DNA of 64,000 nt from Pirellulaceae bacterium (lineage in GTDB: Bacteria > Planctomycetota > Planctomycetia > Pirellulales > Pirellulaceae). The position numbers were made by a program, and so were the translations under genes. The notes under the pieces are model-generated. The model worked only from the letters and a program-made list of their open reading frames with translations, had not been told where the DNA came from and did not search any database. The DNA is taken from NCBI GenBank assembly GCA_026004795.1, contig BPJV01000001.1, forward strand, positions 528,446 through 592,445, in the 5' to 3' direction. Positions 17,401 to 34,223 of the stretch are shown here, piece by piece; the stretch's first letter is position 1; each line of letters starts with the position of its first letter.

Positions 17401-18372
17401 CTACCCGTTCGGGCCGCGTGCAGTCGCTGTGTCGTCTCCATTGGTCTGGGGGGAGGGAGTATAGTCGGGCCCGACCAACATGGGCAGGAATTGATGGAGT
17501 GAACGGAAGACTACCGGTTGGTCGTCGATCGGTTCCCCATCGATCGAAAAACGCAGTTGGGGATCACTGGTGATCCGTAACTTGTGCACCTGTCGATACT
17601 CGACCTGGTCGCATTCGAGATACGTTTGAAGAATAAAATTGGCGGCCACGGATGCCAGATCGAACCCCGTTCCCTCCTTGATCAAGATGACATCCATCAG
17701 GCCGTCCTCTGGGTTGGCACGCGGTGCTAATGGAAGATGGCCGGCGTTGGTGCGTCCATTGGCGACAATGACATTCCAAACAGGAAGACGCAGGGGCGAT
17801 TCGTCATCGAACTGCACTTCCACTTGGTAGGCTTCCAGGTCCGCTAGAACGCCGATAGCACCCCTCAAATAGCATAATGGCCCCCAGGTTTGCTTGATCT
17901 CATCGGTCAGTGCCTCGGTAACTCGGTCGCTGTTGCCTCCGGCAGCTACATTGGCATAACAAGCTGGTTCGCCGGAAGTGGCAATCTCGATCAAATCAAG
18001 ATCCCGCGGCGTTCCGTTTCGCAAGACCTCATGGGCTTGTTGGAGGTCGTCGGGCAAGCCGAGGGTAAGGGCAAAATCGTTTGCCGTCCCAATCGGAAGA
18101 ACGCCCATGACGATCGGCGACTTTCTCGCTGGGAGCGCACCGCGGTAGAGACCATTGGCCACCGCATTGACTGTCCCATCACCACCAGCAGCCACGACCA
18201 CCTGGAAGTCATGACGTCGCGCCCTTTCCGCTAAGACACGAGCCTGACGATTCGACTCCGCCTCCACAATCTCGATGGTCGGAATCGCCTCCAACTGCTG
18301 TCGAACTTCCTGTGCCTCGTCGGTCGAAGCTTTACCGGCACATGGATTCCAAATGATGAGTGCACGAGTCAT
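17401..18372 (-). CDS. Diacylglycerol kinase-family lipid kinase (YegS/BmrU-like)
   Basis: IWNPCAG, AAGGDGTVN, LPIGTANDFA, SIDGE motifs. Confidence 0.9.
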   Translation of the reverse strand: MTRALIIWNPCAGKASTDEAQEVRQQLEAIPTIEIVEAESNRQARVLAERARRHDFQVVVAAGGDGTVNAVANGLYRGALPARKSPIVMGVLPIGTANDFALTLGLPDDLQQAHEVLRNGTPRDLDLIEIATSGEPACYANVAAGGNSDRVTEALTDEIKQTWGPLCYLRGAIGVLADLEAYQVEVQFDDESPLRLPVWNVIVANGRTNAGHLPLAPRANPEDGLMDVILIKEGTGFDLASVAANFILQTYLECDQVEYRQVHKLRITSDPQLRFSIDGEPIDDQPVVFRSLHQFLPMLVGPDYTPSPQTNGDDTATARGPNG

Positions 18373-18516
18373 AGCTCCATGCCTCGGCTTGTCTTCATAC
18401 GCTCTGCCTCCTCTAACAAACACGTCATCCTTCGCATCAATCGCCTCGCTGACTGGCCGCCAATGCATGGGACGCGCGACGCCCGGGCGATCGGCCGCAC
18501 GCCCCAACAGCGTGCC

Positions 18517-18906
18517 TCACTGCCCCCCTGGCGAATCGTCTTGCAATGCTTTACCCGCCGATTCTAGTGCGTTCCCCAACGTTTCCTTTGCGTTCTCAGC
18601 GGCGTCCTCAATCGATTCACCAGCCTCTTCCAGCCCTTCGCGAACTTGCTCAGTCGTTGTCTGCTCCTCGTCCGGCTTGGCTTCACGAGCAATTTCTTGT
18701 CTAGCTTCCGCTACTTCATCGGCAATCTCTTCCCCAGCCTCCCGTACTTCCCGAGCCACGTCCTCCGCGCGCTCCTCGGGAGTCTCCGGGCGTGTATCGC
18801 ACCCCACCAGGCTGAACGTCACCATGCCAACCAGGGAGGCGGCAATGACGTTGCCGACTACCATACGAAACTGGTTCATCCACGGTTTTTCTGTCCTACG
18901 CTTCAT
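18517..18906 (-). CDS. Small acidic lipoprotein with LEA/apolipoprotein-like helical repeats
   Basis: SLVG-C lipobox; E/A-rich ~11-mer repeats. Confidence 0.65.
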   Translation of the reverse strand: MKRRTEKPWMNQFRMVVGNVIAASLVGMVTFSLVGCDTRPETPEERAEDVAREVREAGEEIADEVAEARQEIAREAKPDEEQTTTEQVREGLEEAGESIEDAAENAKETLGNALESAGKALQDDSPGGQ

Positions 18907-19010
18907 CGGAAAACCTCCTCTCAGAGATGGAAAACTACGAATGTTTTTTTGCGAACCCGTTGAGCCGTCAGTGCCCGATCGTCGCCAGCTGTCTCCGCCA
19001 CTGGGACACG

Positions 19011-19026
19011 TGCAACTGCTGTGCCG
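19011..19026 (-). promoter_or_regulatory. Sigma-54 (-24/-12) promoter upstream of the lipoprotein gene
   Basis: Minus strand CGGCACAGCAGTTGCA matches GGCAC-N5-TTGC with exact GG-N10-GC spacing; intergenic. Confidence 0.7.
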
Positions 19027-19040
19027 CGAAAGCAACTAGG

Positions 19041-20000
19041 TCAACGAGCAATGGCCGGCTTGTTCGTTGTGCGGTCGGGAGCTGGAATACGCGTTTCCCC
19101 TGCTTCGCTTGAATCTCCCCCCTCGGATCGATCTTCCGCAGCAGCGTGGGCAGCAAGCTGTTCCGAGGCACTGGTAAGAAAGCGACTGACAATCACCGTA
19201 ACGTTGTCGCCCCCTGCCTTCCCTGTGGCGCGTTCGACAAGTCGTTCACCCATTTGGCGCGCGGTCGTATCGCGTCTGAGAACCGATCGAATCTCCTCGT
19301 CCGATAGTTGTCGGTACAGACCATCGGTACATAGCAATAGGATGTCTCCCGGTTCTAGCTGGTGTTCCGTGGTTTCAAGAGTAGCCTCATGGTCGCCTGG
19401 TGACTTTTCCTCCGCCCCTATCGGATAGGGCGTCTTGCCAGGCGACTCGACGTGATCGGTAGGGAAGGTGGAGGGTGAAAGCGCACTTGACCTAGGTGCC
19501 AGCAGGTGGCACAAACCGCCATCGCGAAACAGGTAGCTCCGGCACGTGCCTGCCCCGACCAAAAAGATGCGCGGCCAGAAAAGGTACGCAAGCAGGATGC
19601 TGGCCGGAGAAGACGGTGGGAAATCTGCATCGGTCTCCGCAATCTGCTCGACTCTCTCTTGCGAATCTTCCACAGCCGTGCGCAATTGGCGCTCCAGCGA
19701 TACATCGGTCGAAGTGAGGAAGAAGTAGCGTCGATTGGCGCTGAGCACGCTGGACACGAGGGCGTCGACAGCTTGCTGAGAAGCTCGCTGCGTTTTGCTC
19801 CCGTCGCCGCCATGACCATCGGCCACCACCAACAACTGCCCCATCGAGCTGCCATGCAATCGCGTCTGCGATTCCAGGCTCAAACTTGTCTGGTGTAGAC
19901 GCATAGATTTGTGCAAGTCGGCGACCAGGAACTGATCATCATTGACCGGACAATTCCGCCCGATGGCAGAGCATCCCCAACAATCCATTTTCAAGCGCAT
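19041..20000 (-). CDS. PP2C/PPM-family Ser/Thr phosphatase-like protein
   Basis: NDD, VVADGHGG, LLCTDGL, GGDNVTVI motifs; the GDSR motif is replaced by GTCR. Confidence 0.8.
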   Translation of the reverse strand: MRLKMDCWGCSAIGRNCPVNDDQFLVADLHKSMRLHQTSLSLESQTRLHGSSMGQLLVVADGHGGDGSKTQRASQQAVDALVSSVLSANRRYFFLTSTDVSLERQLRTAVEDSQERVEQIAETDADFPPSSPASILLAYLFWPRIFLVGAGTCRSYLFRDGGLCHLLAPRSSALSPSTFPTDHVESPGKTPYPIGAEEKSPGDHEATLETTEHQLEPGDILLLCTDGLYRQLSDEEIRSVLRRDTTARQMGERLVERATGKAGGDNVTVIVSRFLTSASEQLAAHAAAEDRSEGGDSSEAGETRIPAPDRTTNKPAIAR

Positions 20001-20103
20001 GGTGACCACCTCTCTGTATCCATGGCCATCGCGGCTACCGCGACGAAGATCACAAGGGAGCGACAGGAAAGCGGTGACCGTTGGTTGTTCGCCGGCCGGA
20101 GGC

Positions 20104-20385
20104 TCACGTCTTTACTCGACGACGGGTCAACAGCCCCAAGACCCCGGTAAAAAGGGCGGCACCGATGATGGACCACACCACGGGGAATGTGGTATCCCCC
20201 AATCGCAACGCGAAGACCTCGGGGAGGCCCATCAGCCGAGCTAACCAAGTGCCCAACAACGCTCCAATAAACCCGAGCACGATGGAGATCACACAACCAC
20301 CGCGAGAGAATCCGCTGAGGGCCTGCCCCAAGGCCCCGCAGATGCCGGCTACGAGCAGCAGCATGAAAAACTCGCCGATGGTCAC
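20104..20385 (-). CDS. GlsB/YeaQ/YmgE-family (transglycosylase-associated) stress membrane protein
   Basis: Three TM segments, SIVLGFIGALLG, SIIGA motifs; GAGGAGG RBS before the GTG. Confidence 0.85.
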   Translation of the reverse strand: MTIGEFFMLLLVAGICGALGQALSGFSRGGCVISIVLGFIGALLGTWLARLMGLPEVFALRLGDTTFPVVWSIIGAALFTGVLGLLTRRRVKT

Positions 20386-20444
20386 TGGTTCCTCCTCAAG
20401 TTAGAAATCCTGCGGCAGTGGCTGACGCTTGGGGCGGGGCGAAG

Positions 20445-20621
20445 CTACGGATGCGTCTTGGGGCCCACCGTGGCGATCACCCACACGGCATGAATGATGC
20501 CGGGAAGGTATCCCAATAGCGTGAGCAGAATATTCAGCCAGAACTGCATGCCGAAACCTACCTGAAGAAAGACTCCCAGCGGAGGCAGCAAGATCGCAAA
20601 AAGAATCCGAATGAAATCCAT
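20445..20621 (-). CDS. YqaE/Pmp3-family small membrane protein (58 aa; absent from the ORF track)
   Basis: Manual translation MDFIRILFAILLPPLGVFLQVGFGMQFWLNILLTLLGYLPGIIHAVWVIATVGPKTHP*; AGGAG RBS upstream. Confidence 0.9.
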   Translation of the reverse strand: MDFIRILFAILLPPLGVFLQVGFGMQFWLNILLTLLGYLPGIIHAVWVIATVGPKTHP

Positions 20622-20666
20622 CGTTTTTTCTCCTATTCAGGGAATCGAGTTAACGGTCCGCTGTGC

Positions 20667-21266
20667 CTATTCAGACTGCGAGAAAGAATGCCACAGCGAT
20701 TGGACCACGTGCAATTGACGTAACGCCAAATCGAGGTCTTGGTACTGCCGAAAGATCGATCGCCTCTCGGGGCATTCCTTCATTTGCGATAGGGCCGCCT
20801 CATATTTCGCCTTGACGTAGTTTTCATCGCGACGCATCCCTTGAAGTACGCCACCATCATCACGCACCTGACGCCATAAATTGCGAACGGCCACACCGAT
20901 CCCATCATGGCGCACCGGGGCGATGCCACCGTGATCCCTGGACGATGGCGGTGACATGCTGGCCCGATGCGATGGATCGATGACTTCCGTCGGATGCGAC
21001 TCTCCCGGCCACAGATGCAACTGCTCAGTGCCCTTTCGACATAGAGCCTGCAACTCTAGAGCATGGTGCATTCTCATGCGACCGACGAATTGCACATAGC
21101 GTGCCAAGCGATTCCAATGCACCTCCCCTCCGACACGTGTCAACTCGCGCCAGCTCTCCCAATTGACGTGGACCAATTCACGTACCACCCGAGCCGTATT
21201 CGAGTCGTCCGGGCCCTCGGCGTGGAATTGGTGTTGCTGAATCATGTGATCGTCTCGCACGGTCAT
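20667..21266 (-). CDS. Divergent PA2169/DUF2383-like ferritin-like four-helix protein
   Basis: Helix pattern ...LRNLWRQVR...VLQGMRRDENYVKAKYEAAL...IFRQYQDL resembles that family; AGGGAG RBS before ATG 21266. Confidence 0.5.
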   Translation of the reverse strand: MTVRDDHMIQQHQFHAEGPDDSNTARVVRELVHVNWESWRELTRVGGEVHWNRLARYVQFVGRMRMHHALELQALCRKGTEQLHLWPGESHPTEVIDPSHRASMSPPSSRDHGGIAPVRHDGIGVAVRNLWRQVRDDGGVLQGMRRDENYVKAKYEAALSQMKECPERRSIFRQYQDLDLALRQLHVVQSLWHSFSQSE

Positions 21267-21290
21267 CGGTGTCTCCCTGGAAAAACTCAT

Positions 21291-21306
21291 TGCACTTGCC
21301 GTGCCA
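21291..21306 (-). promoter_or_regulatory. Sigma-54 (-24/-12) promoter at the head of the PA2169-like/yqaE/glsB operon
   Basis: Minus strand TGGCACGGCAAGTGCA with GG-N10-GC spacing, 25 nt upstream of ATG 21266. Confidence 0.7.
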
Positions 21307-21623
21307 TGCGTTCGTAGATCGGTAATTCGCTGGGCAATAGCGAACCGGGAAGCGAACGTGGTCGAATTGCAAGCACACTGATCGTTGGACGATCACTCAC
21401 CTGGTGCTCGCTACCACCGCAAGGCGGATTGGTTCTCACCGCACACTGGACGCGCAGGCCGAGACCGCTTCGATGATTCACCAACGCCGCGGTCCGTTGG
21501 GAAGACTAGGCCCTCACCATCAGGGAGAAATCGTAGTTGGCTCCTTACCATTGCAGCTTTGGCCAAGTATCGTAATTAAGTCGGAACTGAAACGAATCTC
21601 CTGGACCAAGGGAAGATCCACGC

Positions 21624-24600
21624 ATGCATGCCGTTCCCGTCCCTCGACACTCCAACCGCACCACGCATTGGTTGGTCCGCCTATCCTACGTGGCGGCTGC
21701 TTTGCTCGCACTTGGGTTTCAGCTTGCATTGAACCTGGGAGTCATCGGCTCCATTCTTTATTTGCCGGTCGTATGGATCGCCTACCGCACCAGTCGCCCG
21801 AAAGACATCTACGCCGCCGCGGCGGTCGCATCGCTCATGGTGCTGCTCGACGCGTTCTTGAATCCACCGCAACTCTATATGTGGCGGCTGGTAGTCAACC
21901 GAACTCTGGGCCTGTCAGCCATCTGGATGACGGCGTACATGTTTGTTCAGATTCTCCGCTCGCACCAAGAGATCGTCGCGCGGGATCAATCGCGCAGCCG
22001 CATCGTCGAGCACGCCCTGGAGGGGGTGGTATCCACGACCGCCGATGGACGCATCCTGGACTGGAACAAGAAAGCCTCGGAAATCTTCGGGTGGTCGAAA
22101 GCAGAGGTATTGGGTAAGCGCATCATGGACGTGCTGGGATCCAGTGAAGACGACTCGGACCACCCAATACAACATCTTTACAATGCATTGCAACAAACCC
22201 CCGAGGGGACCAACATCCTAGAGTGCAAGAGTCGCCGCAAGAGTGGTGAGGAAATCCTGGTCGAGATCAGCATGGTCCCATTGACCATCAACAATACACT
22301 GCTCGTTACCGGTTTCGTCCGCGACATCACCGATCGCGATGAAATTGCTGCTTACCGCACCCTGATGGCGGCTTTGGTCGACTCCTCCTACGATGCGATC
22401 ATCGGCAAGGATTCCCAGGGGACGATTATCAGTTGGAATGCCGGGGCGGAGAGGATTTTTCAGTACACAGAAGAAGAAGCACTCGGCAAAACGGCAAAAC
22501 TGATTCTTCCTCCGGGATTGCATGAAGAGGAGGAGGAAATCCGTCATGCGTTGGCGAATCGGACCCGACTCGAGCAGTTCGAGACGGTGCGACGCCGCAA
22601 GGATGGCACGTTGCTGCCGGTGTCGATTACGGTGTCGCCCATCCTTGATGACCACGAGCGGTTGTTGGGGTGGTCGTTCATCGAACGTGACATGACCGAC
22701 CGGAAACGGGAACGGGAGGAGTTGCAACGTGCCAAGGAGGCTGCTGAACGCGCCGTGCAGGTGCGCTCGCAATTCTTGGCCAACGTCAGCCACGAATTGC
22801 GTACCCCCATGAATGCCATTATCGGCATGACCGATCTAGCCCTGGAAGAAGAGCTTTCTGAACCAGTACGAGACTACTTGGAAACGGCACGTTCGGCCGC
22901 CCACTCATTACTCAGGTTGCTGAATGACATTTTGGATTTCTCGAAGATAGAAGCGGGAAAGTTTTCCATTGAAGAAGCCCCGTTCAGTGTTCAAGAGGTC
23001 GTGGATGAGACGATCAAGGCGTTGGGGGGGCGTGCGCTGGCCAAGCAGCTCGAATTGATCTGCGAGGTCGATCACCACATTCCGGAAGAATTGATGGGCG
23101 ACGCCTCGCGATTGAGGCAGATCCTGATGAACCTGGTCGGGAACGCCATCAAATTCACCGACCGCGGTGAGGTCTTCGTAAAGGTCCGTTTGGCTCGTGC
23201 CTGGGCCCGAGGCGCCCGGTTGGAGTTTTCGGTCAGGGACACAGGGATCGGCATTCCACCCGATAAGCGCCGCTTGATTCTCCAGCCGTTTACGCAGATC
23301 CACGGCGACACCCATCGACCCCGCGAAGGTACCGGCCTGGGATTGGCAATCACCAGCGAGCTGATCCGTTTGATGGGAGGAAAGTTGACTGTCGACAGTG
23401 AGGTCGAGCGAGGAAGTTGTTTTTCGTTTCGGCTATCGTTCAACCGTCCTCGTCGAAAGTCGGCCAAGTCCAAGAAGCACTTTCCGCTGGCCCCCGTGGC
23501 TGGCCAGTTGACCTTGGTTCTAGACGATTCGCCGGGCATGCGTCAGGCCCTGGGCGAGATTCTCTACGGCTGGTCGATGAACCACTTCGCATGCGGGACG
23601 GTCGAGGAGGCGTTGCGCGCCCTACGGCAGGCGCAACACGGGGGAACTCCTTTTTCGCTGATCCTCTGTGATTTTTCTTTTCCTGGATTGGATTCAGCCA
23701 GCTTCTTGAAGTTGCTCGCCTCCGAATGCGATCTCGCCCCTCCAGTGATATTCATGGTGACCGGCAATTCTGCGACGGGGCAACTTGAGGACCTGTCCTA
23801 TCCCAGTCGTATCGTGTTCACGCCCAAACCAGTGACGCAGTCGGATTTGATGCATGCGATGCTGCGCGCGTTCGATCTTCGCCTTCCTGATCCCGAAGAA
23901 TCCACCGCGCACTTGAAGCGCGGCAGCAGGCTTCTCCCCACGTCCGCGGCGGGCGGATTGAAAGTGTTGCTTGCTGAAGACACGCCGGCCAATCAAAAGC
24001 TCGTCCGCACCGTTTTGGAAAAGCGAGGGCATCGAGTGCATGTGGCGCAAAATGGCGAGGAGGCGGTCGAATCGGCCCGACGCGAAGCGTTCGACCTGAT
24101 CCTGATGGATATCCAAATGCCGATCATGGATGGCATGCAAGCCACTGCCGCCATTCGACAGTGGGAAGAATCGCAACCCAGGTCAACACCAATCGTCGCG
24201 CTTACGGCTCATGCCATGCGCGGCGATCGCGAATTGTGCCTGCAGGCGGGCATGGATGCCTACCTTGCCAAACCGCTGGACGTCGGTGAACTCATTGAAT
24301 TGGTGGAAACCATCGCTCTGGACCCCAAGATGGAACACGACCTTCAACACACCCATGTCCCCTTGGTTGTGGGCGGAGCAAAGCCCAACACCGGCTCCTC
24401 CCACATCGCAACCCCATTACCTGGACCGGCTGCAGAGCACAGCATGTCCACGGCTCCGACCAACAGCCGGGCGGGCAGCAATGAAGGGGCAGGTGCGGCA
24501 CGCGCGGCAGACCAACCGACCGACATCGTGGACATGGAAGGGACGATGCAGCGATTGGGAGGCGACTTGGAACTGTTTCGCGAGTTCGTCCAGTATTTCC

Positions 24601-24869
24601 TCGAGGACTCTCCTCAACTGCTTCGCCAACTACGAACGGCGGGCCATAGCGCGGATGCCGCCACTATCGAACGAGCAGCGCACAGTTTGAAAGGAATGGC
24701 GAAGAATTTCGGAGCCACTCGCTGTGCAGAGATCGCGGCACGCATCGAGGCGGCAGGCCAGGCCGGCGATAGCACCGTAGCGGTCAAACAGGTAGAAGCC
24801 TTGGAACACGAAGTGGCGCGTCTGGCTACGGCGTTGCAGTCCCTGCGAATGCAGCTCAATAACGATTGA
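21624..24869 (+). CDS. Membrane PAS-PAS hybrid histidine kinase with two receiver domains and Hpt
   Basis: N-terminal TMs, two PAS domains, H-box NVSHELRTPMN, N/G boxes (NLVGNAIKFT, DTGIGI, GTGLGL), LILCD and LILMD receivers, Hpt AAHSLKG. Confidence 0.95.
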   Translation: MHAVPVPRHSNRTTHWLVRLSYVAAALLALGFQLALNLGVIGSILYLPVVWIAYRTSRPKDIYAAAAVASLMVLLDAFLNPPQLYMWRLVVNRTLGLSAIWMTAYMFVQILRSHQEIVARDQSRSRIVEHALEGVVSTTADGRILDWNKKASEIFGWSKAEVLGKRIMDVLGSSEDDSDHPIQHLYNALQQTPEGTNILECKSRRKSGEEILVEISMVPLTINNTLLVTGFVRDITDRDEIAAYRTLMAALVDSSYDAIIGKDSQGTIISWNAGAERIFQYTEEEALGKTAKLILPPGLHEEEEEIRHALANRTRLEQFETVRRRKDGTLLPVSITVSPILDDHERLLGWSFIERDMTDRKREREELQRAKEAAERAVQVRSQFLANVSHELRTPMNAIIGMTDLALEEELSEPVRDYLETARSAAHSLLRLLNDILDFSKIEAGKFSIEEAPFSVQEVVDETIKALGGRALAKQLELICEVDHHIPEELMGDASRLRQILMNLVGNAIKFTDRGEVFVKVRLARAWARGARLEFSVRDTGIGIPPDKRRLILQPFTQIHGDTHRPREGTGLGLAITSELIRLMGGKLTVDSEVERGSCFSFRLSFNRPRRKSAKSKKHFPLAPVAGQLTLVLDDSPGMRQALGEILYGWSMNHFACGTVEEALRALRQAQHGGTPFSLILCDFSFPGLDSASFLKLLASECDLAPPVIFMVTGNSATGQLEDLSYPSRIVFTPKPVTQSDLMHAMLRAFDLRLPDPEESTAHLKRGSRLLPTSAAGGLKVLLAEDTPANQKLVRTVLEKRGHRVHVAQNGEEAVESARREAFDLILMDIQMPIMDGMQATAAIRQWEESQPRSTPIVALTAHAMRGDRELCLQAGMDAYLAKPLDVGELIELVETIALDPKMEHDLQHTHVPLVVGGAKPNTGSSHIATPLPGPAAEHSMSTAPTNSRAGSNEGAGAARAADQPTDIVDMEGTMQRLGGDLELFREFVQYFLEDSPQLLRQLRTAGHSADAATIERAAHSLKGMAKNFGATRCAEIAARIEAAGQAGDSTVAVKQVEALEHEVARLATALQSLRMQLNND

Positions 24870-24977: not shown

Positions 24978-26439
24978 TTAGTCTTCCTCGTCCTCGGCAT
25001 CACGAACGACATTGTCGACGGCGATGCCGAGAGTTTTCATTTTATGCCGCAAACTGCCACGAGTGATTCCCAGTTCAGTTGCTGCCTTGGACTGGTTGCC
25101 GTGATGTTTGCGCAATATCCTGCTCAACAGGTACCGTTCCATCCACTCCAGGGTTTCCGCATAAATATCCTTCGAATTGGCCGCCTCGCGCCCATCGACA
25201 AAGGAGGCGATATCCGTTTCAGGATTGGGATGGTGTTCTGCTGTTGAGGAGGCCGGGGAACCGTGCGGCTGCCGGATCTTTTCCGGGAGACACTCAGGCA
25301 AAAGGATCGGACCGGTGGCCATGAGCATCGCCTTGCGCAAGGCTCCCTGAAGTTCGCGTATGTTGCCAGGCCACCGATAGGAGAGCAACAAGTCCATGGC
25401 CTCATCGGCAATGGCCGTCACCTGTTTCCCTAGTTCGCGGTTGAATCGCTGGAGGAAGTACTGGATGAGTAGACGAAGGTCGTCTCCGCGTTCGCGCAAT
25501 GGAGGCAAGAAGATTTCGAAGGTATTCAATCGATGGTAGAGATCCAGTCGAAATTCTCCATCGGCAATCATCTGCTCCAGATCGCGATTGGTAGCGGAGA
25601 TGATGCGCACATCGACCTCGATCGTCTCCCGCCCGCCAACCCGTTCGAACTTCTTCTCCTGCAGCACTCGTAACACCTTGCTTTGCGTCAGCGGCGACAT
25701 ATCTCCGACTTCATCTAGGAAGATAGTCCCGTCGTTGCATTGTTCGAACTTGCCGATATGCTGCCGATCGGCGCCGGTAAAGGCTCCTTTTTCATGACCG
25801 AATAATTCGCTCTCGAGCAGCGTGTCGGATAGCGCGGCGCAGTTGACCGCAAGGAAGCAATTGTCACTGCGATGGGAATGCTGGTAGATGGCGCGGGCGA
25901 CCAGTTCCTTCCCCGTTCCACTTTCCCCTCGAATCAGGACCGCCACGTCCTGTCCCGCTACTCGGCCAATCTGTTTATATACCTCAAGCATTTGCGGACT
26001 TCGGCCCACCAGGATATCCCCATCGGCAGGGAGTTCTTCCCCTTCCTGCAAGCGTACTGGAGCCAGCATCAGGCGCCGCGTGTGGAGCCCTCGTTCGACC
26101 AGATCCTGAATTTGCTCGACGCTCAACGGCTTGACGACGAACTCGTAGGCGCCCCGTTTCATCGCCTCGATCGCCAGCCCGCTGTCCTCGACTCCGGTAA
26201 TGAAGATGACCGGCAGCTTGATATCGAATTCGCGGATCTCATTGACCAGTTCGATGCCCCGCCCGTCAGGCAGCATGATGTCCAATAACAAGAGATCGGG
26301 GGACTCCGACTTCATCAACTCCATGCCTTCCGCGGCGCTGCCAGCGGTGAGGAGTTCCGACTGCGCTTCCCTTCCAACGCCCGCTGGACCAATCGCTAGT
26401 ACAGTGCGGTCATCGTCGATCACCAATACTTTTCGACAT
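24978..26439 (-). CDS. Sigma-54-dependent response regulator (REC-AAA+-HTH; NtrC/AtoC-like), with an apparent +1 frameshift at codon 3
   Basis: LLLLDIMLPD receiver, GESGTGKE, GAFTGA, FLDEVGD, WPGNIREL, Fis-type HTH; the SD-preceded ATG at 26439 is one base out of frame with the body (the ORF track starts at TTG 26426). Confidence 0.9.
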
Positions 26440-26532
26440 CCTGTGTGTCCTCACTCCTTCTCATGGGGCAATTTTTGGCGCAAGTGGTAGCATCCATAGG
26501 CGCAGCATCGATGGTTTTAGACGTTAATTCGC

Positions 26533-26548
26533 CGGCACATGATTTGCT
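26533..26548 (+). promoter_or_regulatory. Sigma-54 (-24/-12) promoter divergent from the activator gene
   Basis: CGGCACATGATTTGCT matches GGCAC-N5-TTGCW. Confidence 0.7.
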
Positions 26549-26751
26549 GAAACAGATTCTTGTTAACAACGGAAAGAGACACAACGGGACAAATCCTACT
26601 TACAGCGTTATGGTGATGCTCCGGTGACCGACAAGTTGGTCGATCAGCGGCCAACGGTGGCCCCTCGACGCGTTCATAACGCTGGACTCGGAACTATCAT
26701 ACCGCACTGGAGAGGGGGGCAGATCGTTAAAAGGCTGTATCCGACAACTTT

Positions 26752-26771
26752 TTCGTTCACATTCGTTCACA
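26752..26771. repeat. Perfect 10-bp tandem direct repeat (TTCGTTCACA x2)
   Basis: Read directly in the AT-richer intergenic region upstream of the stress operon. Confidence 0.8.
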
Positions 26772-26835
26772 GAACACTTTTTCCGGGTACGCTTCCTGTT
26801 ACGCGTTCGTGCAAACCTTCCATGCAAATCTCAAC

Positions 26836-26851
26836 TGGCGGGCAAACTGCG
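26836..26851 (+). promoter_or_regulatory. Second, weaker sigma-54-like site ~90 nt upstream of the general stress protein gene
   Basis: TGGCGGGCAAACTGCG, GG-N10-GC spacing. Confidence 0.35.
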
Positions 26852-26940
26852 GGGCGTGAAAGGGCACGGGACCCTGTGATTCACAGCGTGCTGTTTGTCC
26901 ATACATGCACATCCTTTATTGCAACGGAGATAATTGTTCC

Positions 26941-27447
26941 ATGACACGAAAAAATCACGCCGATCACTTAGAATCCGTTCGGCACCTTCGCCAGATCATC
27001 GAAAACGCACCGGTCGTCATGCTCACCACGGTCGACCCGTCGGGAATGCTTTTTTCGCGTCCGATGGTCAATATCAACCGGGAGTTCGATGGCGACTTCT
27101 GGCTATTCACCGAATTCGACGACCCCAAGGCCAACGAGATACGGGCGGATTCGCATGTCAATGTGAGCATTGCCGACATCGACCATGGGAGGTACGCCTC
27201 GTTGTCGGGAACAGCCAAGCTGGTCGAAGATCCCAAACGCGTGGAGTTGCTTTGGACGCCTGAATGTGCGGAATGGTTCCCTGACGGGCCCGAAAACAGT
27301 TCACTCGTATTGATTCATGTCGAAGTGGCAACCGCAGCGTATTGGGACCGCAAACAGGGGGTGATGGGAAAACTGGTGGGGCTGCTTCGCCGAGCCATCA
27401 CCGGAGATACCTCGGAAAGCATTCAACACGAGGTGGTCACCTGGTAA
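26941..27447 (+). CDS. General stress protein, pyridoxamine 5'-phosphate oxidase-like FMN split barrel
   Basis: VMLTT...SRPM, FWLFT, YASLSGTA, WFPDGPE motifs; its stop overlaps the next ATG (TAATG). Confidence 0.9.
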   Translation: MTRKNHADHLESVRHLRQIIENAPVVMLTTVDPSGMLFSRPMVNINREFDGDFWLFTEFDDPKANEIRADSHVNVSIADIDHGRYASLSGTAKLVEDPKRVELLWTPECAEWFPDGPENSSLVLIHVEVATAAYWDRKQGVMGKLVGLLRRAITGDTSESIQHEVVTW

Positions 27448-28805
27448 TGGCTCGATACTGCCCAGACAATCGCCGGTCCCTGCGTCCATGGTGTCAGGCA
27501 GTACGGTACATCCGCATGTCATGCTGTTGCCTGGCGGTGGGTGCCCTGCTGCTGAGTTCTCCAGAGGCTCTGGCTCAGGCTGCTCCTCAACTAACCGCAC
27601 AAGGGACTTCGTCGGCCACGACGGATTCTCAATCCGTTGAGAATGGTCCGCCCACCGTGGTAGCCACACCCAACATCACGGCCACACCACCGCAGGATTC
27701 CCCTCCCAGCGATTCTGAAATTTCCGCTGCCGTCGAGAAGATACTCGGTAAGACCGAGTGGTTTGATGAAGTGGAGGTGGAAGTTCACAACGGTGTGGTC
27801 TTCTTGAGGGGGCGTGCCGAAGATGAAACGTCCACAGAGTCGGCTGCTGAATTGGCCGCCTCGGCAGCCGGCGTCCGGGCCGTCGTCAATCGGATGGCCG
27901 TCGTCCGCAAGATCGATTGGTCGCGGACGTTGCCGATCATCATGAGCAGCGTGACCTCGCTATGGCGCGATTTTTTGGCTCACAGTCCGCTGCTTATCGC
28001 CGGCACCGTCGTATTACTGCTGACCGCGCTGGTCGCCAGGATCGCCGAAGCCATCTTCAACCGCATCGCCCAGCGAAGCCGGGTGCGGGCCAGCCTGCAG
28101 GATCTGGTTCGGCAGCTCATGTCGGTCGGGATCTGGATCGTCGGCTTGCTGGTGGCGGCGATCATCATCTTCCCTGGCTTGACTCCCGCCAAAGCACTCA
28201 CCGTACTGGGACTAGGGTCAGTAGCTATTGGCTTTGCCTTTAAAGACATCTTCGAAAACTTCTTCGCGGGCATTTTAATTCTGTGGAAATATCCCTTTGA
28301 TAAGGGAGACTTTATCGAATGCGAAGGACTGCTCGGCAAGATCGAAGGCATCGCCATTCGCACTACGATGATTCGCCAAGTGGACGGGCAATTGGCGGTC
28401 GTCCCCAACGCGTTTTTGTTCAAGAATCCGGTGGATGTCCTCACCAATCGTCCTACTCGCCGCACCACCATTCTTTGCGGTGTGGCCTACGACACCGATT
28501 TGAGCAACGCACGACGAGTGATCGAACAGGCGGTCGAGCAATGCACGACCGTTGACCGCCATCAACCGATCGAGATCTTTGCGCAACAATTCGCCGATTC
28601 GAGCATCAATTTTGAAATCACTTGGTGGACTCGTCCGACACCGCGAGAGATTCGTCAGTCGCGAGATGAAGTGGTGCGAGCGGTGAAACGAGCCCTGGAC
28701 GAGGCGGACATCGAAATCCCGTTTCCTCAGCGCACGTTGCGGTTTCCGGAGGCCTTGTCAGTGCTCGCCAGCCGTCCAGCGGATCGCGCCACGTCTTCCG
28801 AGTAA
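27447..28805 (+). CDS. BON-domain/MscS small mechanosensitive channel fusion (paralog 1)
   Basis: Periplasmic BON (VEVEVHNGVVFLRG...AVVNRM), three TMs, GFAFKDIFENF, VPN, IEIPFPQR. Confidence 0.9.
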   Translation: MARYCPDNRRSLRPWCQAVRYIRMSCCCLAVGALLLSSPEALAQAAPQLTAQGTSSATTDSQSVENGPPTVVATPNITATPPQDSPPSDSEISAAVEKILGKTEWFDEVEVEVHNGVVFLRGRAEDETSTESAAELAASAAGVRAVVNRMAVVRKIDWSRTLPIIMSSVTSLWRDFLAHSPLLIAGTVVLLLTALVARIAEAIFNRIAQRSRVRASLQDLVRQLMSVGIWIVGLLVAAIIIFPGLTPAKALTVLGLGSVAIGFAFKDIFENFFAGILILWKYPFDKGDFIECEGLLGKIEGIAIRTTMIRQVDGQLAVVPNAFLFKNPVDVLTNRPTRRTTILCGVAYDTDLSNARRVIEQAVEQCTTVDRHQPIEIFAQQFADSSINFEITWWTRPTPREIRQSRDEVVRAVKRALDEADIEIPFPQRTLRFPEALSVLASRPADRATSSE

Positions 28806-28874
28806 CGAGGCCGTTGGGCCGCAGCCGATGGGGCGATCCAGCCACACACGACATCGGCAGTTAGGCATGCCGTT

Positions 28875-30347
28875 GTGATTCGAAACGCTTTCACTGCCGA
28901 AGGAGCTACCGATTTGTTCCCATCAGTCCGCCCACTGCCGTGCCTGGCCCTGTTCCTCCTTCTAGGCATCGCCATTCCAGTGCCCGCCGCGATGCTGGGC
29001 CAAGACGAAGCCTCCCTCCCTCAAGATCCTCCGCCTGCAAGCGATGATGGCGATGAGGTCGTGGCCGAAGTGCCTGAGCAGGTGGCCGTTGAACCGACGG
29101 CTCGTGATGACCAGATCGCCGACCGCCTGACGCGGATCCTCGAGGCCACGGGTTGGTTTGAGCAGGTAGAAGTTACCGTCGATGAGGGAGTGGTCTTTCT
29201 GGACGGAGTTTCTCAAGAAGGGCACCACCGCGAGTGGGCCGGGCGCCTGGCATCGAACACGCAAGATGTGGTGGCCGTTGTCAATCGGTTGCGTCTGGGG
29301 CAACAACCACTGTGGGATTTCACGCCCGCGTGGAAGGAATTGTCGCAGTTGACCCGCGACTTGGTGCGTAGCCTGCCGCTGCTGGCCGTCGGCATGGTGG
29401 TATTGGCGTTCACCTGGATGGCGACCCGTTGGACGGCGGTGGGTACGCGAGGCTTCTTTCAACGCCGTGTGGGCAACTCGCTGCTCAGTAGCGTTCTGGC
29501 GCGAACCGTCGCGGTGGTCGTCTTTCTGCTTGGGTTATACCTCGTGCTTCGCATTTCCGGATTGACACGTTTGGCGATGACGGTCATCGGTGGCACGGGA
29601 GTTCTGGGACTGGTCGTCGGCTTCGCCTTTCGCGATATTGCCGAAAATTTCCTGGCCAGTGTGCTGATCAGCATGCAACAGCCTTTTGCCCGCGGAGACC
29701 TGATCGCCGTCGCCGATTACAAGGGATTCGTCCAACGCGTCAATACGCGTTCCACACTACTGATGACCTTGGAGGGAAACCACGTTCAGATTCCCAACGC
29801 CACGATCTACAAGGAAACCATCATCAATTATATGGCCAATCCGAAGACGAGATTCGATTTCGCTGTGGGAATTGGCTACGATGACCCGATCAACCAAGCG
29901 CAATCGATCGCTTTGTCCGTCGTCCGAGAACACCCAGCGGTCTTCGATGACCCCGAGCCGCTCGTCTTAGTAGAGAACCTTGGCGCCTCGACGGTGAACC
30001 TGCGCGTCTACTTTTGGGTGGACATTCACCGCTACGATGGCTTAAAGGTACGTTCAAGTGTGATACGATTGACCAAACTCGCCTATCAGCAGGCAGGGAT
30101 CAGCATGCCCGACGAGGCTCGCGAAGTGGTTTTTCCCGAAGGAGTTCCCGTGCGCATGGTGCCCGAGGAGGCACGCGCCGAAGTGGCCTCCACTCCCCCC
30201 ACCGAACTGCTGGCGTCCACCGTTGGGCCGGCCGAGCCGGTGGCCAGCGCGGCAGAAGGAGACCTGCAGAGCGATGCGGATACGATAAAGAGGCAAGCGG
30301 AACAATCTCGCACGCCGGAGGCGGGGCCAGACCTGCTGGAAGACTAA
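28875..30347 (+). CDS. BON-domain/MscS small mechanosensitive channel fusion (paralog 2)
   Basis: VEVTVDEGVVFLDG...AVVNRL, GFAFRDIAENF, QIPNA, GISMP. Confidence 0.9.
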   Translation: MIRNAFTAEGATDLFPSVRPLPCLALFLLLGIAIPVPAAMLGQDEASLPQDPPPASDDGDEVVAEVPEQVAVEPTARDDQIADRLTRILEATGWFEQVEVTVDEGVVFLDGVSQEGHHREWAGRLASNTQDVVAVVNRLRLGQQPLWDFTPAWKELSQLTRDLVRSLPLLAVGMVVLAFTWMATRWTAVGTRGFFQRRVGNSLLSSVLARTVAVVVFLLGLYLVLRISGLTRLAMTVIGGTGVLGLVVGFAFRDIAENFLASVLISMQQPFARGDLIAVADYKGFVQRVNTRSTLLMTLEGNHVQIPNATIYKETIINYMANPKTRFDFAVGIGYDDPINQAQSIALSVVREHPAVFDDPEPLVLVENLGASTVNLRVYFWVDIHRYDGLKVRSSVIRLTKLAYQQAGISMPDEAREVVFPEGVPVRMVPEEARAEVASTPPTELLASTVGPAEPVASAAEGDLQSDADTIKRQAEQSRTPEAGPDLLED

Positions 30348-30410
30348 CCCTCTCCCTTCGCCGCGCTGGCACCTCTACCCATCATCACCTACCGTCAACG
30401 GTGCATAGGC

Positions 30411-31763
30411 ATGAAGACCTACCTGATCAATCTGTGGGACGGTGTCCGGGGAAGCTACTGGTTCGTCCCGGCGTTGCTGGCTGTAGTGGCCTTGGTGTTG
30501 TCAATCGTGATGCCCTGGGTCGATCAAGGCTTTGCTGACGCTGGATTCGAGCTTCCCGCTTGGGCCGCCACGCGATCGGAGGCAGCACAAACCACACTGT
30601 CGGCAGCAGCCGGGGCGATGATCGGCGTGTCGGGAACCGTGTTTTCCATCACCATCGTTACCCTGTCGTTGACCAGCCAGCAGTTTGGTCCCCGCTTGCT
30701 CCGGCAATTCATGTACGACCTGCTTACCCAGATCACCCTGGGAGTCTTCCTGGCAACCGGTTTCTATTGTTTGCTGATCCTGCGCACCGTAGAAATCACG
30801 CACGACCCGACGCCACCACATTTCTCCATGCTCGTGGCGGCCATCATGGTGGTAACGAGCATGATGTTGTTGATCGCCTTTATTCATCATGTCTCGCAGA
30901 TGATTCAGGCGCCCCACGTGGTCGCTTCGGTGGCGAAGGATCTTGACGATGCCATTGATCGCCTTTTCCCTGAGCGCCTGGGGGAAGCAGGGGGAGAGAA
31001 GGAGGGATCCGCCCCCCCCGCCACCTGTGCGGAATCCTCGGTACTGCCACCAGCCCCTCACTTGAAAGTGCTCGCCCAGAAGGAAGGTTATGTTCAAGCG
31101 ATCGACGCTCATGGCATGATGGAGCTGGCCGAGGAAAGCAACGCCACATTGCGTCTGGCCATACGACCGGGGGATTTCTTGGTTTACCAGATCCTGTTGG
31201 CCGAGGTGTGGTTTCATGGCGAACCGGCGGACACCTCGTCCTTCTCCGAGCGGCTCAACGAAGCCGTGATCGTGGGAATTCGTCGCACCCCGCGTCAAGA
31301 CCTGGAGTGTGCCATCGACGAATTGGTGGAGGTGGCCGTCCGTTCCTTGTCGCCAGGAATCAATGATCCGTTTACAGCGATGAATTGTGTCGATCGCCTG
31401 GCTGCCGCCGTGGGGCGTATCGCTCAGCGCCAATTGCCCGCGCCTTACCGCTACGACCAAGACGGAATGCTGCGCGTCATCGTGCCGGAGGAGCGTTTTG
31501 CCGGCGTGCTGGATGCTGCGTTCAACCAGATCCGTCAGTATGGCCGGGATAGCGTGGCGGTGACGATCCGCATGCTCGAAGCCTTTGAGCGGATTTGTCC
31601 CCACCTGTTTCGACAGGAAGATGCGGAAGCCATGCTACAACATGCCCGGATGTTAGCGCGCCATGCCGACGAATTCCGGGAACAACATGACCGCGACGAC
31701 GTGCTGAGGCGCTACCAACGCGTGGAACACGCCGTGCAGCACCTCCTCGCCAGGGAACAATAG
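30411..31763 (+). CDS. DUF2254-family predicted membrane protein
   Basis: SYWFVP, VFSITIV.LS..SQQFGPRLL, RSLSPGINDPFTA motifs. Confidence 0.85.
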   Translation: MKTYLINLWDGVRGSYWFVPALLAVVALVLSIVMPWVDQGFADAGFELPAWAATRSEAAQTTLSAAAGAMIGVSGTVFSITIVTLSLTSQQFGPRLLRQFMYDLLTQITLGVFLATGFYCLLILRTVEITHDPTPPHFSMLVAAIMVVTSMMLLIAFIHHVSQMIQAPHVVASVAKDLDDAIDRLFPERLGEAGGEKEGSAPPATCAESSVLPPAPHLKVLAQKEGYVQAIDAHGMMELAEESNATLRLAIRPGDFLVYQILLAEVWFHGEPADTSSFSERLNEAVIVGIRRTPRQDLECAIDELVEVAVRSLSPGINDPFTAMNCVDRLAAAVGRIAQRQLPAPYRYDQDGMLRVIVPEERFAGVLDAAFNQIRQYGRDSVAVTIRMLEAFERICPHLFRQEDAEAMLQHARMLARHADEFREQHDRDDVLRRYQRVEHAVQHLLAREQ

Positions 31764-31853
31764 GATACGCGACCAAACTGGGGGTGGGCGATCCCTTGAC
31801 GACATCCACCGCCAGGGAAGGCCGACGGAGCTGCACGATGGCATCGACCGCTG

Positions 31854-32783
31854 CTATTTGGGAACCACCAGGACGGGATGTGGAGAGCGACGGATGTAAT
31901 CGTGCACCTCGGCTTGCGCATCGTGCTCCCCCTGTTCGAGCGCGAGGATCATGAGCACGGGGTGCGTCTGGGGATGCTCCGGCGTAACAGGCTGGTCGTC
32001 ATCGTCCTCATGACGCACCAGCAAGTCGTAGTCAACCCCCATCTCCTTCGCACTCTTTTGCAATCCGGCGTGCAGACGCGCATAGGCCTTCGCCAGAGCG
32101 CGTTCCACATCCTCGTAGCTGATCTCTTCCGCCGGATGCAAGGCTTGAACGATGGTGCGGAAGTTCTCATAAAACTGATGTTCGACAAGGAGCAGCAACT
32201 CCAGGCGCCCACCGTTTCGTACCAATCCCACGGCATACGCCGCCGCCTTCTCCGCGGCCTCGTTCTCTCCCGTCAACACGATCCGCACATGCGCCAAAGG
32301 ATCTCGTGTCCTAGCGTCCGGCTGCCGAATCGCCACGAAAGGGATCTTTAAGCGGGAGATCAGCACATCCACCACCGTTCCCGTACTGTCCTCACCAACA
32401 CTCTCGAAGTCTCTACCGAACGGGCAGGGAACGATGAGGAAATCGGCGTCCACCTCGTCAATAGCAGCCAAGATCCTTTCGAATGGCTCATCGCCTTTTG
32501 CTTCCTGAAGGACCGATGCCCCAAGCTGCTGCAACGCGGCACGTTGCTCATGGTTCGTAGCATCGCCGAGATTCAAGACGGAGAATTGGCAAGACCATTG
32601 TTCAGCAACTCGCTGCGCCATGGCCACAGTAGCAGCATCTTGGCTCGAGCCATCGAGAGCGATTAAGGCGCGTCGGCCGCGACACGGCCGTACAGAATTC
32701 ACCACGCCGACATCAGCACGACGAAAGAGATCGATGGAAGCAGCCAGGTCCTGGTCCACTTTTCGTTGCGTGGTATCGGTCAT
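31854..32783 (-). CDS. Tandem universal stress protein (USP)-like protein
   Basis: LIALDGS, ADFLIVP...G, and C-terminal RRSPHPVLVVP USP-type elements in two halves. Confidence 0.65.
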   Translation of the reverse strand: MTDTTQRKVDQDLAASIDLFRRADVGVVNSVRPCRGRRALIALDGSSQDAATVAMAQRVAEQWSCQFSVLNLGDATNHEQRAALQQLGASVLQEAKGDEPFERILAAIDEVDADFLIVPCPFGRDFESVGEDSTGTVVDVLISRLKIPFVAIRQPDARTRDPLAHVRIVLTGENEAAEKAAAYAVGLVRNGGRLELLLLVEHQFYENFRTIVQALHPAEEISYEDVERALAKAYARLHAGLQKSAKEMGVDYDLLVRHEDDDDQPVTPEHPQTHPVLMILALEQGEHDAQAEVHDYIRRSPHPVLVVPK

Positions 32784-32816
32784 GATCGTACTCGACTTGC
32801 TCGACTTGCGTGGGAT

Positions 32817-34223
32817 TCAGGGGAGCGGCGGTATCCAGCCCAAAAAACGAAATAACAGCAAGAATCCGATGGCACCGAGAATCTGCAATACCATGATGGT
32901 GCCGCCCAGACGTATGAATTCCCCCCATGATACCGTCTGATGCTCTTCCTTCTGCAAGGTGTACAACGCGATGACACAGGAAATCGAACCGATGGGCGTG
33001 CCGTTGCCACCCAGGTTGCATCCCAGAATAACGCTCCACCACATCGGTTCCACAGGAACGGCACTTCCCCCGATTTCGTTGACAATGGGAATGAGTGTGG
33101 CCGCCACTGGAATGTTATCCACAATCGCGGAGGCGACGCCAGAAAACGCAGTCAGCAAGGCAACCAAGGCAGGAGTACTCCCGCCTGAAAAATGAACTAC
33201 CTGTTCCGCCATCCAGCTCAACGCGCCCGTCGACTTCACACAACCGATGATCACAAACAATCCCACGAAAAACAGAATCACCGTCCAGTTGACCTTGGCA
33301 ATGGAGTCCTCGACCGATTTGCCAGCAAACAGCAGCGCCGCAGTACCACCGGCCAAAGCGACATAGTCCATGCCTACTCCCAACGGTTGTGCCAGAGCAA
33401 ACCCGACGACGGTGAGGACCAAAATGACCGCACTGCGTATCAAAATGCGACGATCGTCTACCATTGCCCACGGATCGAACTGTTCGATCCGCTGGCGTAA
33501 CAGCTGGCGAGCATCCTCCGCCTGCTGCCAGGGAAGCGAACGGCGAAAACAAAAGCGCAACAGGGCAATGGCAATAATCAGACTGATCAGTGCATACGGA
33601 GCGGAGACGATCAAGAAATGAGCGTAGGGAATCCCTGCCTGGGTGCCGATCATGATGTTCGGCAAGCCGCTAGCAAAGGTGACGATGGCTCCGCTGTTGG
33701 CACACACGGCTGCCGACAGCAAAAATGGTTTGGCAGGATAATCGAGCGCGCGACAAATAACGAGAATCAATGAGCTGAGGATCAGCATCGCCGGCACAAT
33801 CGTCAACACGGCCACAAAGGCAAACGTCAACGCACAAATGGCGAAATAAAGCGCCGAGGCGCGTCCCCCTGTAGCCCGCACGATTTGCATGCTCAGAAAA
33901 TGGAACAGACCGCTGCGACCGGTTACATCCACCAAAATACCGGTGCCAATGATGACCCCGAAAATGTTGAGATCGTGCGACAGGATCTCATGGATGTCCT
34001 CGTACGATGGGAGCACTCCCAGAGCCAACGCCGCTGCAGTAAGCAGGACGGCTCCGGTAAGCGCAGCGACCGTCTTATGAAACCGCTCGACCGCCACCCC
34101 GATGTAGGTGAGGATCATACCCAACAAGAAGATAAGCATGACCCAACCGGGAGCACGGCCACCACCTTCTTCCCCCGCCCCCAAGAGCAGGTCCCTAGGT
34201 TGCTCGAACAGCCAAAGCTCCAA
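32817..34223 (-). CDS. ArsB/NhaD (IT superfamily) permease
   Basis: ANSGAIVT...PNIMIG, SAIVDNIP, NLGGNGTPIGS motifs; GGAGG RBS before TTG 34223. Confidence 0.85.
   Translation of the reverse strand: MELWLFEQPRDLLLGAGEEGGGRAPGWVMLIFLLGMILTYIGVAVERFHKTVAALTGAVLLTAAALALGVLPSYEDIHEILSHDLNIFGVIIGTGILVDVTGRSGLFHFLSMQIVRATGGRASALYFAICALTFAFVAVLTIVPAMLILSSLILVICRALDYPAKPFLLSAAVCANSGAIVTFASGLPNIMIGTQAGIPYAHFLIVSAPYALISLIIAIALLRFCFRRSLPWQQAEDARQLLRQRIEQFDPWAMVDDRRILIRSAVILVLTVVGFALAQPLGVGMDYVALAGGTAALLFAGKSVEDSIAKVNWTVILFFVGLFVIIGCVKSTGALSWMAEQVVHFSGGSTPALVALLTAFSGVASAIVDNIPVAATLIPIVNEIGGSAVPVEPMWWSVILGCNLGGNGTPIGSISCVIALYTLQKEEHQTVSWGEFIRLGGTIMVLQILGAIGFLLLFRFLGWIPPLP

Follow-up and report, generated by a model that had tools for sequence, protein, structure and literature searches.

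To our knowledge, the general-stress responses known in bacteria all use sigma-70-family factors (RpoS, SigB or EcfG), and the organisation of this response in planctomycetes has not been established. Here we consider a block of genes at positions 17401–34223 of a 64,000-nt stretch of DNA (the window below means this whole stretch) from a Pirellulaceae bacterium (contig BPJV01000001.1, positions 528,446–592,445). The block is probably the home locus of a stress-protection regulon conserved in the Pirellulaceae, in which sigma-54 and an NtrC-type two-component system would take over a gene set placed under RpoS, SigB or EcfG in other phyla.

The output of the RpoS (Enterobacteria), SigB (Firmicutes) and EcfG/PhyR (Alphaproteobacteria) regulons includes the GlsB/YeaQ, DUF892/YciE, BON/OsmY and PPOX-like GSP26 families. 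The yqaE (Pmp3), yjbJ (CsbD) and ytjA (DUF1328) genes are tightly sigma-S-dependent in Salmonella (PMC5437024), and csbD and mscS are EcfG-dependent in Sphingopyxis (PMC7083833). The Pmp3/YqaE, CsbD/YjbJ, DUF1328/YtjA and MscS families are thus shared by these regulons and the system described here. The difference is in the control: the former use a sigma-70-family factor, regulated by partner switching or by proteolysis, whereas here it is apparently sigma-54 with an ATP-dependent enhancer-binding response regulator.

In the Planctomycetia, the link of sigma-54 to MscS, universal stress protein (USP), CsrA and chaperone genes is already known in silico. The searched passages of a survey by Carrera-Reyna et al. 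2025 (PMC12316311) describe predicted sigma-54 promoters before genes for MscS (COG0668), UspA (COG0589), CsrA (COG1551) and NtrC-family proteins, as well as for the GroEL, GroES, DnaK, DnaJ and IbpA chaperones. They also cite an earlier csrA prediction in Pirellula sp. strain 1 (Studholme & Dixon 2004) and name planctomycete activators ‘ZraR’ by homology. The same gene classes stand behind sigma-54 sites in the genome of the window. The searched passages give no activator, binding motif or conserved locus for the stress targets of the Planctomycetia, and mention neither CsbD nor five COG numbers for small general-stress families. Stress induces MscS genes in Rhodopirellula baltica, and also a ‘general stress cluster’ that includes PPOX (PMC2754498). 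The literature search found no experimental paper on the subject. What is new here is the specific activator/kinase pair, the candidate 17-bp binding site, the conserved core target set and the unlinked targets.

The candidate regulators are encoded by two adjacent genes.

21624–24869, plus strand: membrane-anchored hybrid histidine kinase of 1081 amino acids, with the Pfam architecture transmembrane (TM)-PAS-PAS-HisKA-HATPase-REC-REC-Hpt.
24978–26426, minus strand: NtrC-type sigma-54 activator, REC-AAA+-HTH_8 (Sigma54_activat, PF00158, 6e-73; HTH_8, 1.5e-10; Response_reg, 6.2e-22).

The kinase unites the H-box (SHELRTP), HATPase_c, the receiver aspartate (LILMDIQMP in the second receiver) and the Hpt histidine (HSLKG) in one protein. 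The alignment of the activator retains EKGAFTGA, Walker A (GESGTGKE) and Walker B (IFLDEVGD); its receiver has DDD, LLLLDIMLP with the phospho-acceptor aspartate, and VVKP, and the orthologs share the recognition helix ITRGSLR[HN]K. Every catalytic and phospho-acceptor motif is present in the pair, which the initial annotation had described as a PAS-PAS hybrid kinase with Hpt and a REC-AAA+ activator with an intact GAFTGA.

The Vibrio LuxN/LuxQ-LuxU-LuxO system has the same order of components, from a hybrid kinase through Hpt to an NtrC-type activator and sigma-54 promoters, and there too a sigma-54 promoter and a long non-coding stretch are divergent from the activator gene. However, the kinase of the window includes the Hpt domain itself, the predicted targets are stress operons that encode proteins and not Qrr small RNAs, and the activator is far below the cut-off of the LuxO model (325.6 vs 800 bits). 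Moreover, the leader of about 390 nt between the divergent promoter and the start of the PPOX-like gene (26549–26940, plus strand) is not unusually structured (folding z = −0.62 against shuffles), and the Rfam search of the block, leader included, yielded nothing above threshold. An open reading frame (ORF) of 106 amino acids at 26624–26944 was considered as a gene in this region; it has no family, was not selected by the codon-usage caller, and was treated as non-coding.

Enteric NtrC sites have the 6-N5-6 geometry, and this is also the geometry of the palindrome described below. At glnAp2 of the enterobacterial NtrB/NtrC system, as here, a REC-AAA+ activator with a Fis-type HTH goes with tandem 17-bp palindromic enhancers about 100 nt upstream of a GG-N10-GC promoter. 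The half-site is TGGTCG here and TGCACC there, and the kinase here is a hybrid with Hpt. The best NCBIfam model for the activator is ntrC (TIGR01818), at 437.4 bits against a cut-off of 558.6, and all the other NCBIfam equivalog cut-offs are missed as well. None of the predicted targets has to do with nitrogen, zinc, phage shock or RNA repair, which sets the system apart from NtrC, ZraSR, PspF and RtcR. To judge by its sequence, the activator would act in the manner of NtrC, yet it is not the nitrogen regulator.

The genome scanned for promoters was the window's own assembly (label G000; 5.59 Mb, 59% G+C, 17 contigs, labelled C below; L labels denote activator loci of relatives, G labels genomes). 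The position weight matrix (PWM) for sigma-54 has 16 positions and is our approximation of the published consensus, so that its scores are relative only. The three -24/-12 matches noticed earlier in the block are all there, intergenic and co-oriented with the stress genes downstream, and two more were found.

19011–19026, minus strand: sigma-54 match CGGCACAGCAGTTGCA, PWM score 14.3, rank 128 of the 2749 matches listed; between the PP2C and lipoprotein genes.
21291–21306, minus strand: sigma-54 promoter match TGGCACGGCAAGTGCA, score 15.9, rank 44; 24 nt before ATG 21266, which is preceded by a GGGAGA Shine-Dalgarno sequence.
26533–26548, plus strand: sigma-54 promoter match CGGCACATGATTTGCT, score 15.1, rank 78; divergent from the activator gene, about 390 nt before the PPOX-like start.
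34772–34787, minus strand: sigma-54 match CGGCACACTACTTGCA, score 15.0, rank 85; before the orf79-permease-USP genes, additional to the earlier three.
21091–21106, minus strand: sigma-54 match TGGCACGCTATGTGCA, score 16.9, rank 22; intragenic, in the PA2169-like ORF, additional.

In all five (scores 14.3–16.9) the GG and GC doublets are exactly 10 nt apart, in a TGGCAC-N5-TTGCW-like context. No further sigma-54 sites precede the kinase, activator, Pmp3, GlsB, PP2C, second MscS, DUF2254 or USP genes. Genome-wide, 13 matches score at least 18; 11 are promoter-positioned, two are otherwise intergenic and none is intragenic, hence the matrix finds real promoters in this organism. At lower scores, the excess of promoter-positioned matches over the expectation from intragenic density makes up 71% of the observed count at 14–15 and 85% at 15–16, with genes called by a crude codon-usage caller. 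The five sites scoring at least 14 within 16 kb form the densest such cluster in the genome (lambda 0.43 expected). By cluster and positional excess, and by the comparison with relatives below, the predicted promoters of the window are credible.

The top-scoring match of the window, at 21091–21106, lies in frame within the PA2169-like ORF, whose N-terminus aligns to homologs, and 470 nt upstream of Pmp3. The Pmp3 gene has its own sigma-54 promoter in relatives and none in the window. The match may serve as an internal promoter, or it may be intragenic and inert.

The candidate enhancer is a 17-bp palindrome, TGRTYG-N5-CRAYCA, whose copies in relatives resolve to TTGGTYG-N5-CRACCAA.

21358–21376 and 21378–21396, no strand: tandem palindromes GTGGTCGAATTGCAAGCAC and CTGATCGTTGGACGATCAC, scores 12.8 and 15.4 (control 99th percentile 12.8), 53–73 nt upstream of the 21291 promoter; the second copy is a perfect TGATCG-N5-CGATCA.
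26636–26654, no strand: palindrome TTGGTCGATCAGCGGCCAA, score 16.3, in the PPOX-like leader.

TGGT-N9-ACCA is over-represented in the loci of relatives at that spacing only (18 occurrences vs 4–9 at other spacings), and this exact-pattern enrichment was computed before any promoter positions were used. Our first guess by eye, TGGT-N7-ACCA, was not enriched, and exact 5-mer palindromes upstream of the sites were uninformative, since divergent promoter pairs with a common region made up most of them. In 11 loci of relatives, 20 of the 28 strong palindromes are situated 30–300 nt upstream of a sigma-54 site, vs 1.7 expected from the area, and the distance to the promoter is often 80–150 nt. Overall, the palindrome precedes the sigma-54 sites of loci with activator orthologs by 70–250 nt. 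Tandem copies 20 nt apart are seen in L005 and L008, as in the window. In the genome of the window, four of 11 exact palindromes lie 50–250 nt upstream of a sigma-54 site, and a palindrome at p≤0.01 accompanies 11 of the 270 sigma-54 sites (2.7 expected). Exact palindromes adjoin activator orthologs in three further genomes (G035, G039 and G029). Position, conservation and co-location with the activator gene lead us to predict that the activator binds these 17-bp palindromes, with TGATCGTTGGACGATCA as the candidate binding sequence.

A protein-guided scan of the Pirellulaceae and related metagenome-assembled genomes (MAGs) for activator orthologs yielded 13 loci, taken with 10-kb flanks. The orthologs are 52–70% identical to the activator of the window, and with the closest of them at 70% the promoters were compared at the motif level. 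Orthologs of the kinase, Pmp3, PP2C, DUF2254, PPOX and MscS genes occur within 10 kb. The hybrid kinase stands beside the activator in eight of the 13 loci, at 37–48% identity. Pmp3 is the most conserved target, with orthologs in six loci (60–69% identity) and a sigma-54 site immediately upstream in each. DUF2254 is found in five (L003, L005–L007 and L012; 37–40%), PP2C in three (L005–L007; 33–36%), and PPOX or MscS in others; DUF2254 and PP2C are by this comparison predicted to be conserved members of the regulon. In L003 the PPOX-like ortholog is behind a sigma-54 site and a palindrome. The second BON-MscS channel has 48% identical orthologs in L005 and L016, the L005 copy being behind a sigma-54 site and tandem palindromes.

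Altogether, sigma-54 sites in these loci are directly upstream of Pmp3, DUF2383, DUF1328, PPOX, MscS, CsbD, Hsp20, USP and CsrA genes. The Pfam tally behind palindrome-plus-promoter pairs is Pmp3 5, DUF2383 4, activator 4, kinase 3 (Hpt 5), BON 3, PP2C 3, DUF2254 2, MscS 2 and DUF1328 2, which is the core gene set of the window itself. As the same gene set, promoters and palindrome recur in relatives, we consider this wiring probably genuine. Positive autoregulation is implied by several relatives, in which DUF2383 with the activator and, separately, the kinase are behind palindrome-plus-promoter pairs.

The mechanism that we propose is read from the domains. The membrane-anchored PAS-PAS kinase would sense a signal, and the phosphate would pass from the histidine of SHELRTP to the aspartate of the second receiver, then to the Hpt histidine of HSLKG and to the aspartate of the activator's receiver; we infer the last transfer, from kinase/Hpt to activator, from the conserved adjacency of the two genes. 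The activator would then bind the TGRTYG-N5-CRAYCA palindromes, and its GAFTGA-bearing AAA+ ring would hydrolyse ATP to open sigma-54 holoenzyme complexes at the -24/-12 promoters. The first unit to be driven would comprise the PA2169-like, Pmp3, GlsB and PP2C genes, the lipoprotein and lipid kinase genes being served by an internal promoter; the second would comprise the PPOX-like, two BON-MscS and DUF2254 genes; and the third, less securely, orf79, the CitMHS permease and USP. Units elsewhere in the genome would be csrA, the CsbD-HolinX-DUF2383-PerM-MscL run, the lipoprotein paralog and, probably, DUF1328-PP2C. By analogy with the way in which other phyla are known to regulate these families, the output may be an osmotic, desiccation or general stress response.

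The genes of the block, with families from Pfam and NCBIfam profile searches of translated ORFs, are as follows.

17401–18507, minus strand: YegS/DAGK-type lipid kinase (DAGK_cat 2.8e-28, YegS_C 2.3e-18; TIGR00147 134.8 bits, above cut-off); final gene of the left operon.
18517–18906, minus strand: E/A/R-rich lipoprotein, LVGC lipobox in the translation, probable start ATG 18906.
19041–20009, minus strand: PP2C-type Ser/Thr phosphatase (PP2C_2 1.2e-9, SpoIIE 1.6e-7).
20104–20385, minus strand: GlsB/YeaQ/YmgE (Transgly_assoc) small membrane protein (PF04226 26.9 bits, above cut-off).
20445–20621, minus strand: Pmp3/YqaE proteolipid (PF01679 1.5e-23).
20667–21266, minus strand: divergent PA2169/DUF2383-like four-helix protein of 199 amino acids; opening gene of the left operon.
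26941–27447, plus strand: PPOX-like protein of the ‘general stress protein 26’ type (Pyrid_ox_like 2e-38).
27342–28805, plus strand: BON-MscS channel 1, longest ORF (MS_channel_2nd 5.8e-17, BON 5.5e-12); the true start is probably near the PPOX-like stop codon.
28875–30347, plus strand: BON-MscS channel 2 (MS_channel_2nd 5.4e-16, BON 4.3e-9).
30411–31763, plus strand: DUF2254 membrane protein (PF10011 3e-120).
31854–32783, minus strand: USP-like protein, weak (PF00582, partial match); final gene of the right-hand minus-strand operon.
32817–34223, minus strand: CitMHS/ArsB-superfamily (ion-transporter) permease (CitMHS 1e-57).
34392–34631, minus strand: orf79, 79 amino acids, behind the 34772 promoter match, with an AAGGAG Shine-Dalgarno sequence before ATG 34631; no Pfam or NCBIfam match.

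Most of the families named in the initial annotation are recovered: the lipid kinase, PP2C, GlsB, Pmp3, PPOX-like protein, two BON-MscS channels, DUF2254 and the permease. The USP call passes its cut-off, although weakly and over a part of the domain (26.4 vs 24 bits). The PA2169-like call is weak as well; the 199-residue protein has no Pfam match and aligns end to end with the DUF2383/PA2169 proteins of relatives at 16–20% identity, with an insert of 34 residues. For the lipoprotein no Pfam family scores above cut-off, and ‘LEA-like’ is descriptive only. The claim that the block holds no sigma factor, anti-sigma or STAS gene is borne out, no sigma-70-family, anti-sigma or STAS domain being found by Pfam and NCBIfam among its called genes. 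The lipid kinase is a lineage-specific accessory. Its paralog (31% identity) at C7:155711–156571 lies in a 6.5-kb region, C7:150311–156773, with four sigma-54 sites around a groES gene and this paralog.

The rpoN gene is present (Sigma54_DBD 210 bits at C1:932954–933427, in an open frame of 511 amino acids), about 380 kb from the block, and palindrome-linked sigma-54 sites occur on other contigs.

C5:11249: site before csrA.
C5:17811: site before a small Rho_N protein gene upstream of a glycoside hydrolase.
C9:193680: site before a paralog of the window lipoprotein.
C9:199245: site before the run CsbD / unknown / Holin-X / DUF2383 / PerM / MscL.

The DUF1328-PP2C genes are probably a further unlinked target. 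With rpoN distant and these targets unlinked, the module is not self-contained, and the initial annotation has to be corrected on this point. What stands of the general-stress module wired to RpoN is the rpoN gene itself, the credible promoters and the conserved core loci.

The unlinked sites fall into two sigma-54 islands. That at C5:11000–26500 contains csrA, the Rho_N protein with the glycoside hydrolase, DUF1328, PP2C, DUF892 and an unannotated ORF of 332 amino acids, and that at C9:193000–199500 contains CsbD, Holin-X, DUF2383, PerM, MscL and the lipoprotein. Several of these sites have the same palindrome, and there is no activator gene on C5. Three csrA paralogs are behind sigma-54 matches, at C5:11423 and in the regions of C4:516233 and C10:88883. 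The C5 copy has a perfect palindrome 170 nt upstream, and csrA in L016 has, like it, a sigma-54 match and a palindrome.

The best sigma-54 matches of the genome precede two groES genes, groEL, two hsp20 genes, dnaK, dnaJ, DUF892 and USP, all without the palindrome (the chaperone sites are C4:227757, C1:830041, C7:150747, C9:47424, C5:281823, C1:251828 and C5:182864). Hence sigma-54 is broadly a stress sigma factor here, served by several activators. The heat-shock chaperones appear from these sites to be sigma-54-dependent via another activator, and the activator of the window would serve the subset of small membrane proteins, channels and ‘general stress’ genes.

Several observations weigh against assigning the block to one such regulon. 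The activator orthologs begin M-P/S-x-[IV]-L-[AV]-I-D-D-D behind a good Shine-Dalgarno sequence. The corresponding ATG of the window (26438) has AAAA, not AAA, behind it, and reading from this ATG reaches a stop after nine codons. An in-frame TTG (26426) gives MVIDDD. The ancestral start is shifted by one base from the frame of the gene, and the start codon is uncertain. Either the assembly has a homopolymer error here (26426–26455) or the frameshift is genuine. Neither the kinase nor the activator has a sigma-54 site upstream, unlike their autoregulated counterparts in relatives, and 26533 is the only sigma-54-like site in 26420–26700. The palindrome of the 26533 promoter is 88 nt downstream of it, again unlike relatives. 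The 19011 and 34772 sites have no recognisable palindrome (score at least 7.5) within 300 nt, the closest one to 34772 being weak (8.4) and about 450 nt upstream. In 40 relatives, the whole-genome counts of exact palindromes are no different from those of the reversed-pattern control; they are thus unusable for a presence/absence correlation, and only co-location with activator orthologs is informative. Both matrices are our own constructs, and that for the palindrome was partly built from sites counted later. Finally, conservation covers the core genes, their sigma-54 sites and the palindrome, and not the periphery: the lipid kinase, GlsB, USP, permease, orf79 and lipoprotein give no tblastn match at the loci of relatives.

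Part of this would be expected if the promoters were real without forming one regulon, the local activator running only the PA2169-like and PPOX/MscS units and other activators serving 19011 and 34772. Apart from the missing palindromes, the genes behind these two sites are not conserved at the loci of relatives, the genome has 12 strong Sigma54_activat genes, and the chaperone sites without the palindrome mean that other activators clearly serve stress genes. However, the lipoprotein behind 19011 has a paralog (C9:193230–193724) behind a sigma-54 site with a palindrome, and in L014 a similar lipoprotein gene is divergent from the activator, beside a palindrome. Moreover, five sites around one activator gene are unlikely by chance, and enhancers can act over kilobases. 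We regard this division among activators as unlikely. Another explanation is that the -24/-12 matches are accidental in a genome of 59% G+C, transcription of the genes starting instead at sigma-70-type promoters. Each site is just a 16-nt match, three of them begin with C rather than the usual T, and 64 sites scoring 14–16 are intragenic genome-wide. Yet the cluster statistic and positional enrichment, the conservation of the motif before orthologous genes whose proteins are about 60% identical, and the strong association with an independent palindrome all speak against chance, and sigma-70-like matches in the block do not exceed the shuffled expectation. This explanation is already disfavoured, and we consider it very improbable.

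Another question is what the conserved sigma-54 regulon is for. Families typical of general-stress output are present both in the window (Pmp3, Transgly_assoc, PPOX-like, BON-MscS, USP) and at the linked loci (CsbD, DUF1328, DUF892, DUF2383, MscL). Tentatively, it is possible that in the Pirellulales sigma-54, the kinase/activator pair and TGGTCG-N5-CGACCA form a master switch of general stress, the counterpart of RpoS, SigB or EcfG, with CsrA as a post-transcriptional arm, PP2C as feedback and separate activators for the heat-shock chaperones. If true, it would be a fourth, mechanistically different solution to general stress, with zero basal leak and ATP-gated, kinase-controlled firing, and it would explain the sigma-54 boxes at chaperone, MscS, USP and CsrA genes in the Planctomycetia. 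The regulon may instead be a specific envelope, osmotic or ion-homeostasis response, general stress being under an RpoD-like paralog or extracytoplasmic function (ECF) sigma factors. Most targets in the window are membrane proteins (Pmp3, GlsB, two BON-MscS channels, DUF2254, the permease and the lipoprotein), MscL and PerM belong to the C9 unit, and the five RpoD-like paralogs of the genome mean that sigma-54 need not be the sole stress sigma factor. The RpoS, RpoH and SigB/F/G models have no genomic match above cut-off, which, the models being lineage-specific, does not show that a stress sigma factor is absent. On the other hand, the cytoplasmic general-stress families CsbD, DUF2383, PPOX-like, CsrA and USP are also among the predicted targets, and the top sigma-54 sites, preceding chaperones, DUF892 and USP, make sigma-54 broadly stress-linked. 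A response confined to the envelope, osmotic or ion homeostasis seems to us rather doubtful.

Two minor observations concern other loci. The same sigma-54 site and downstream gene for a membrane protein of 299 amino acids stand at both C12:1074 and C10:7234, either as a repeated segment or as an assembly duplicate at contig ends. In L005, a Mariniblastus MAG, a Ser/Thr protein kinase of 971 amino acids (15950–18865) is behind a palindrome (22.3) and a sigma-54 site; together with the conserved PP2C of the predicted regulon, it hints at a layer of Ser/Thr phosphorylation in the response.

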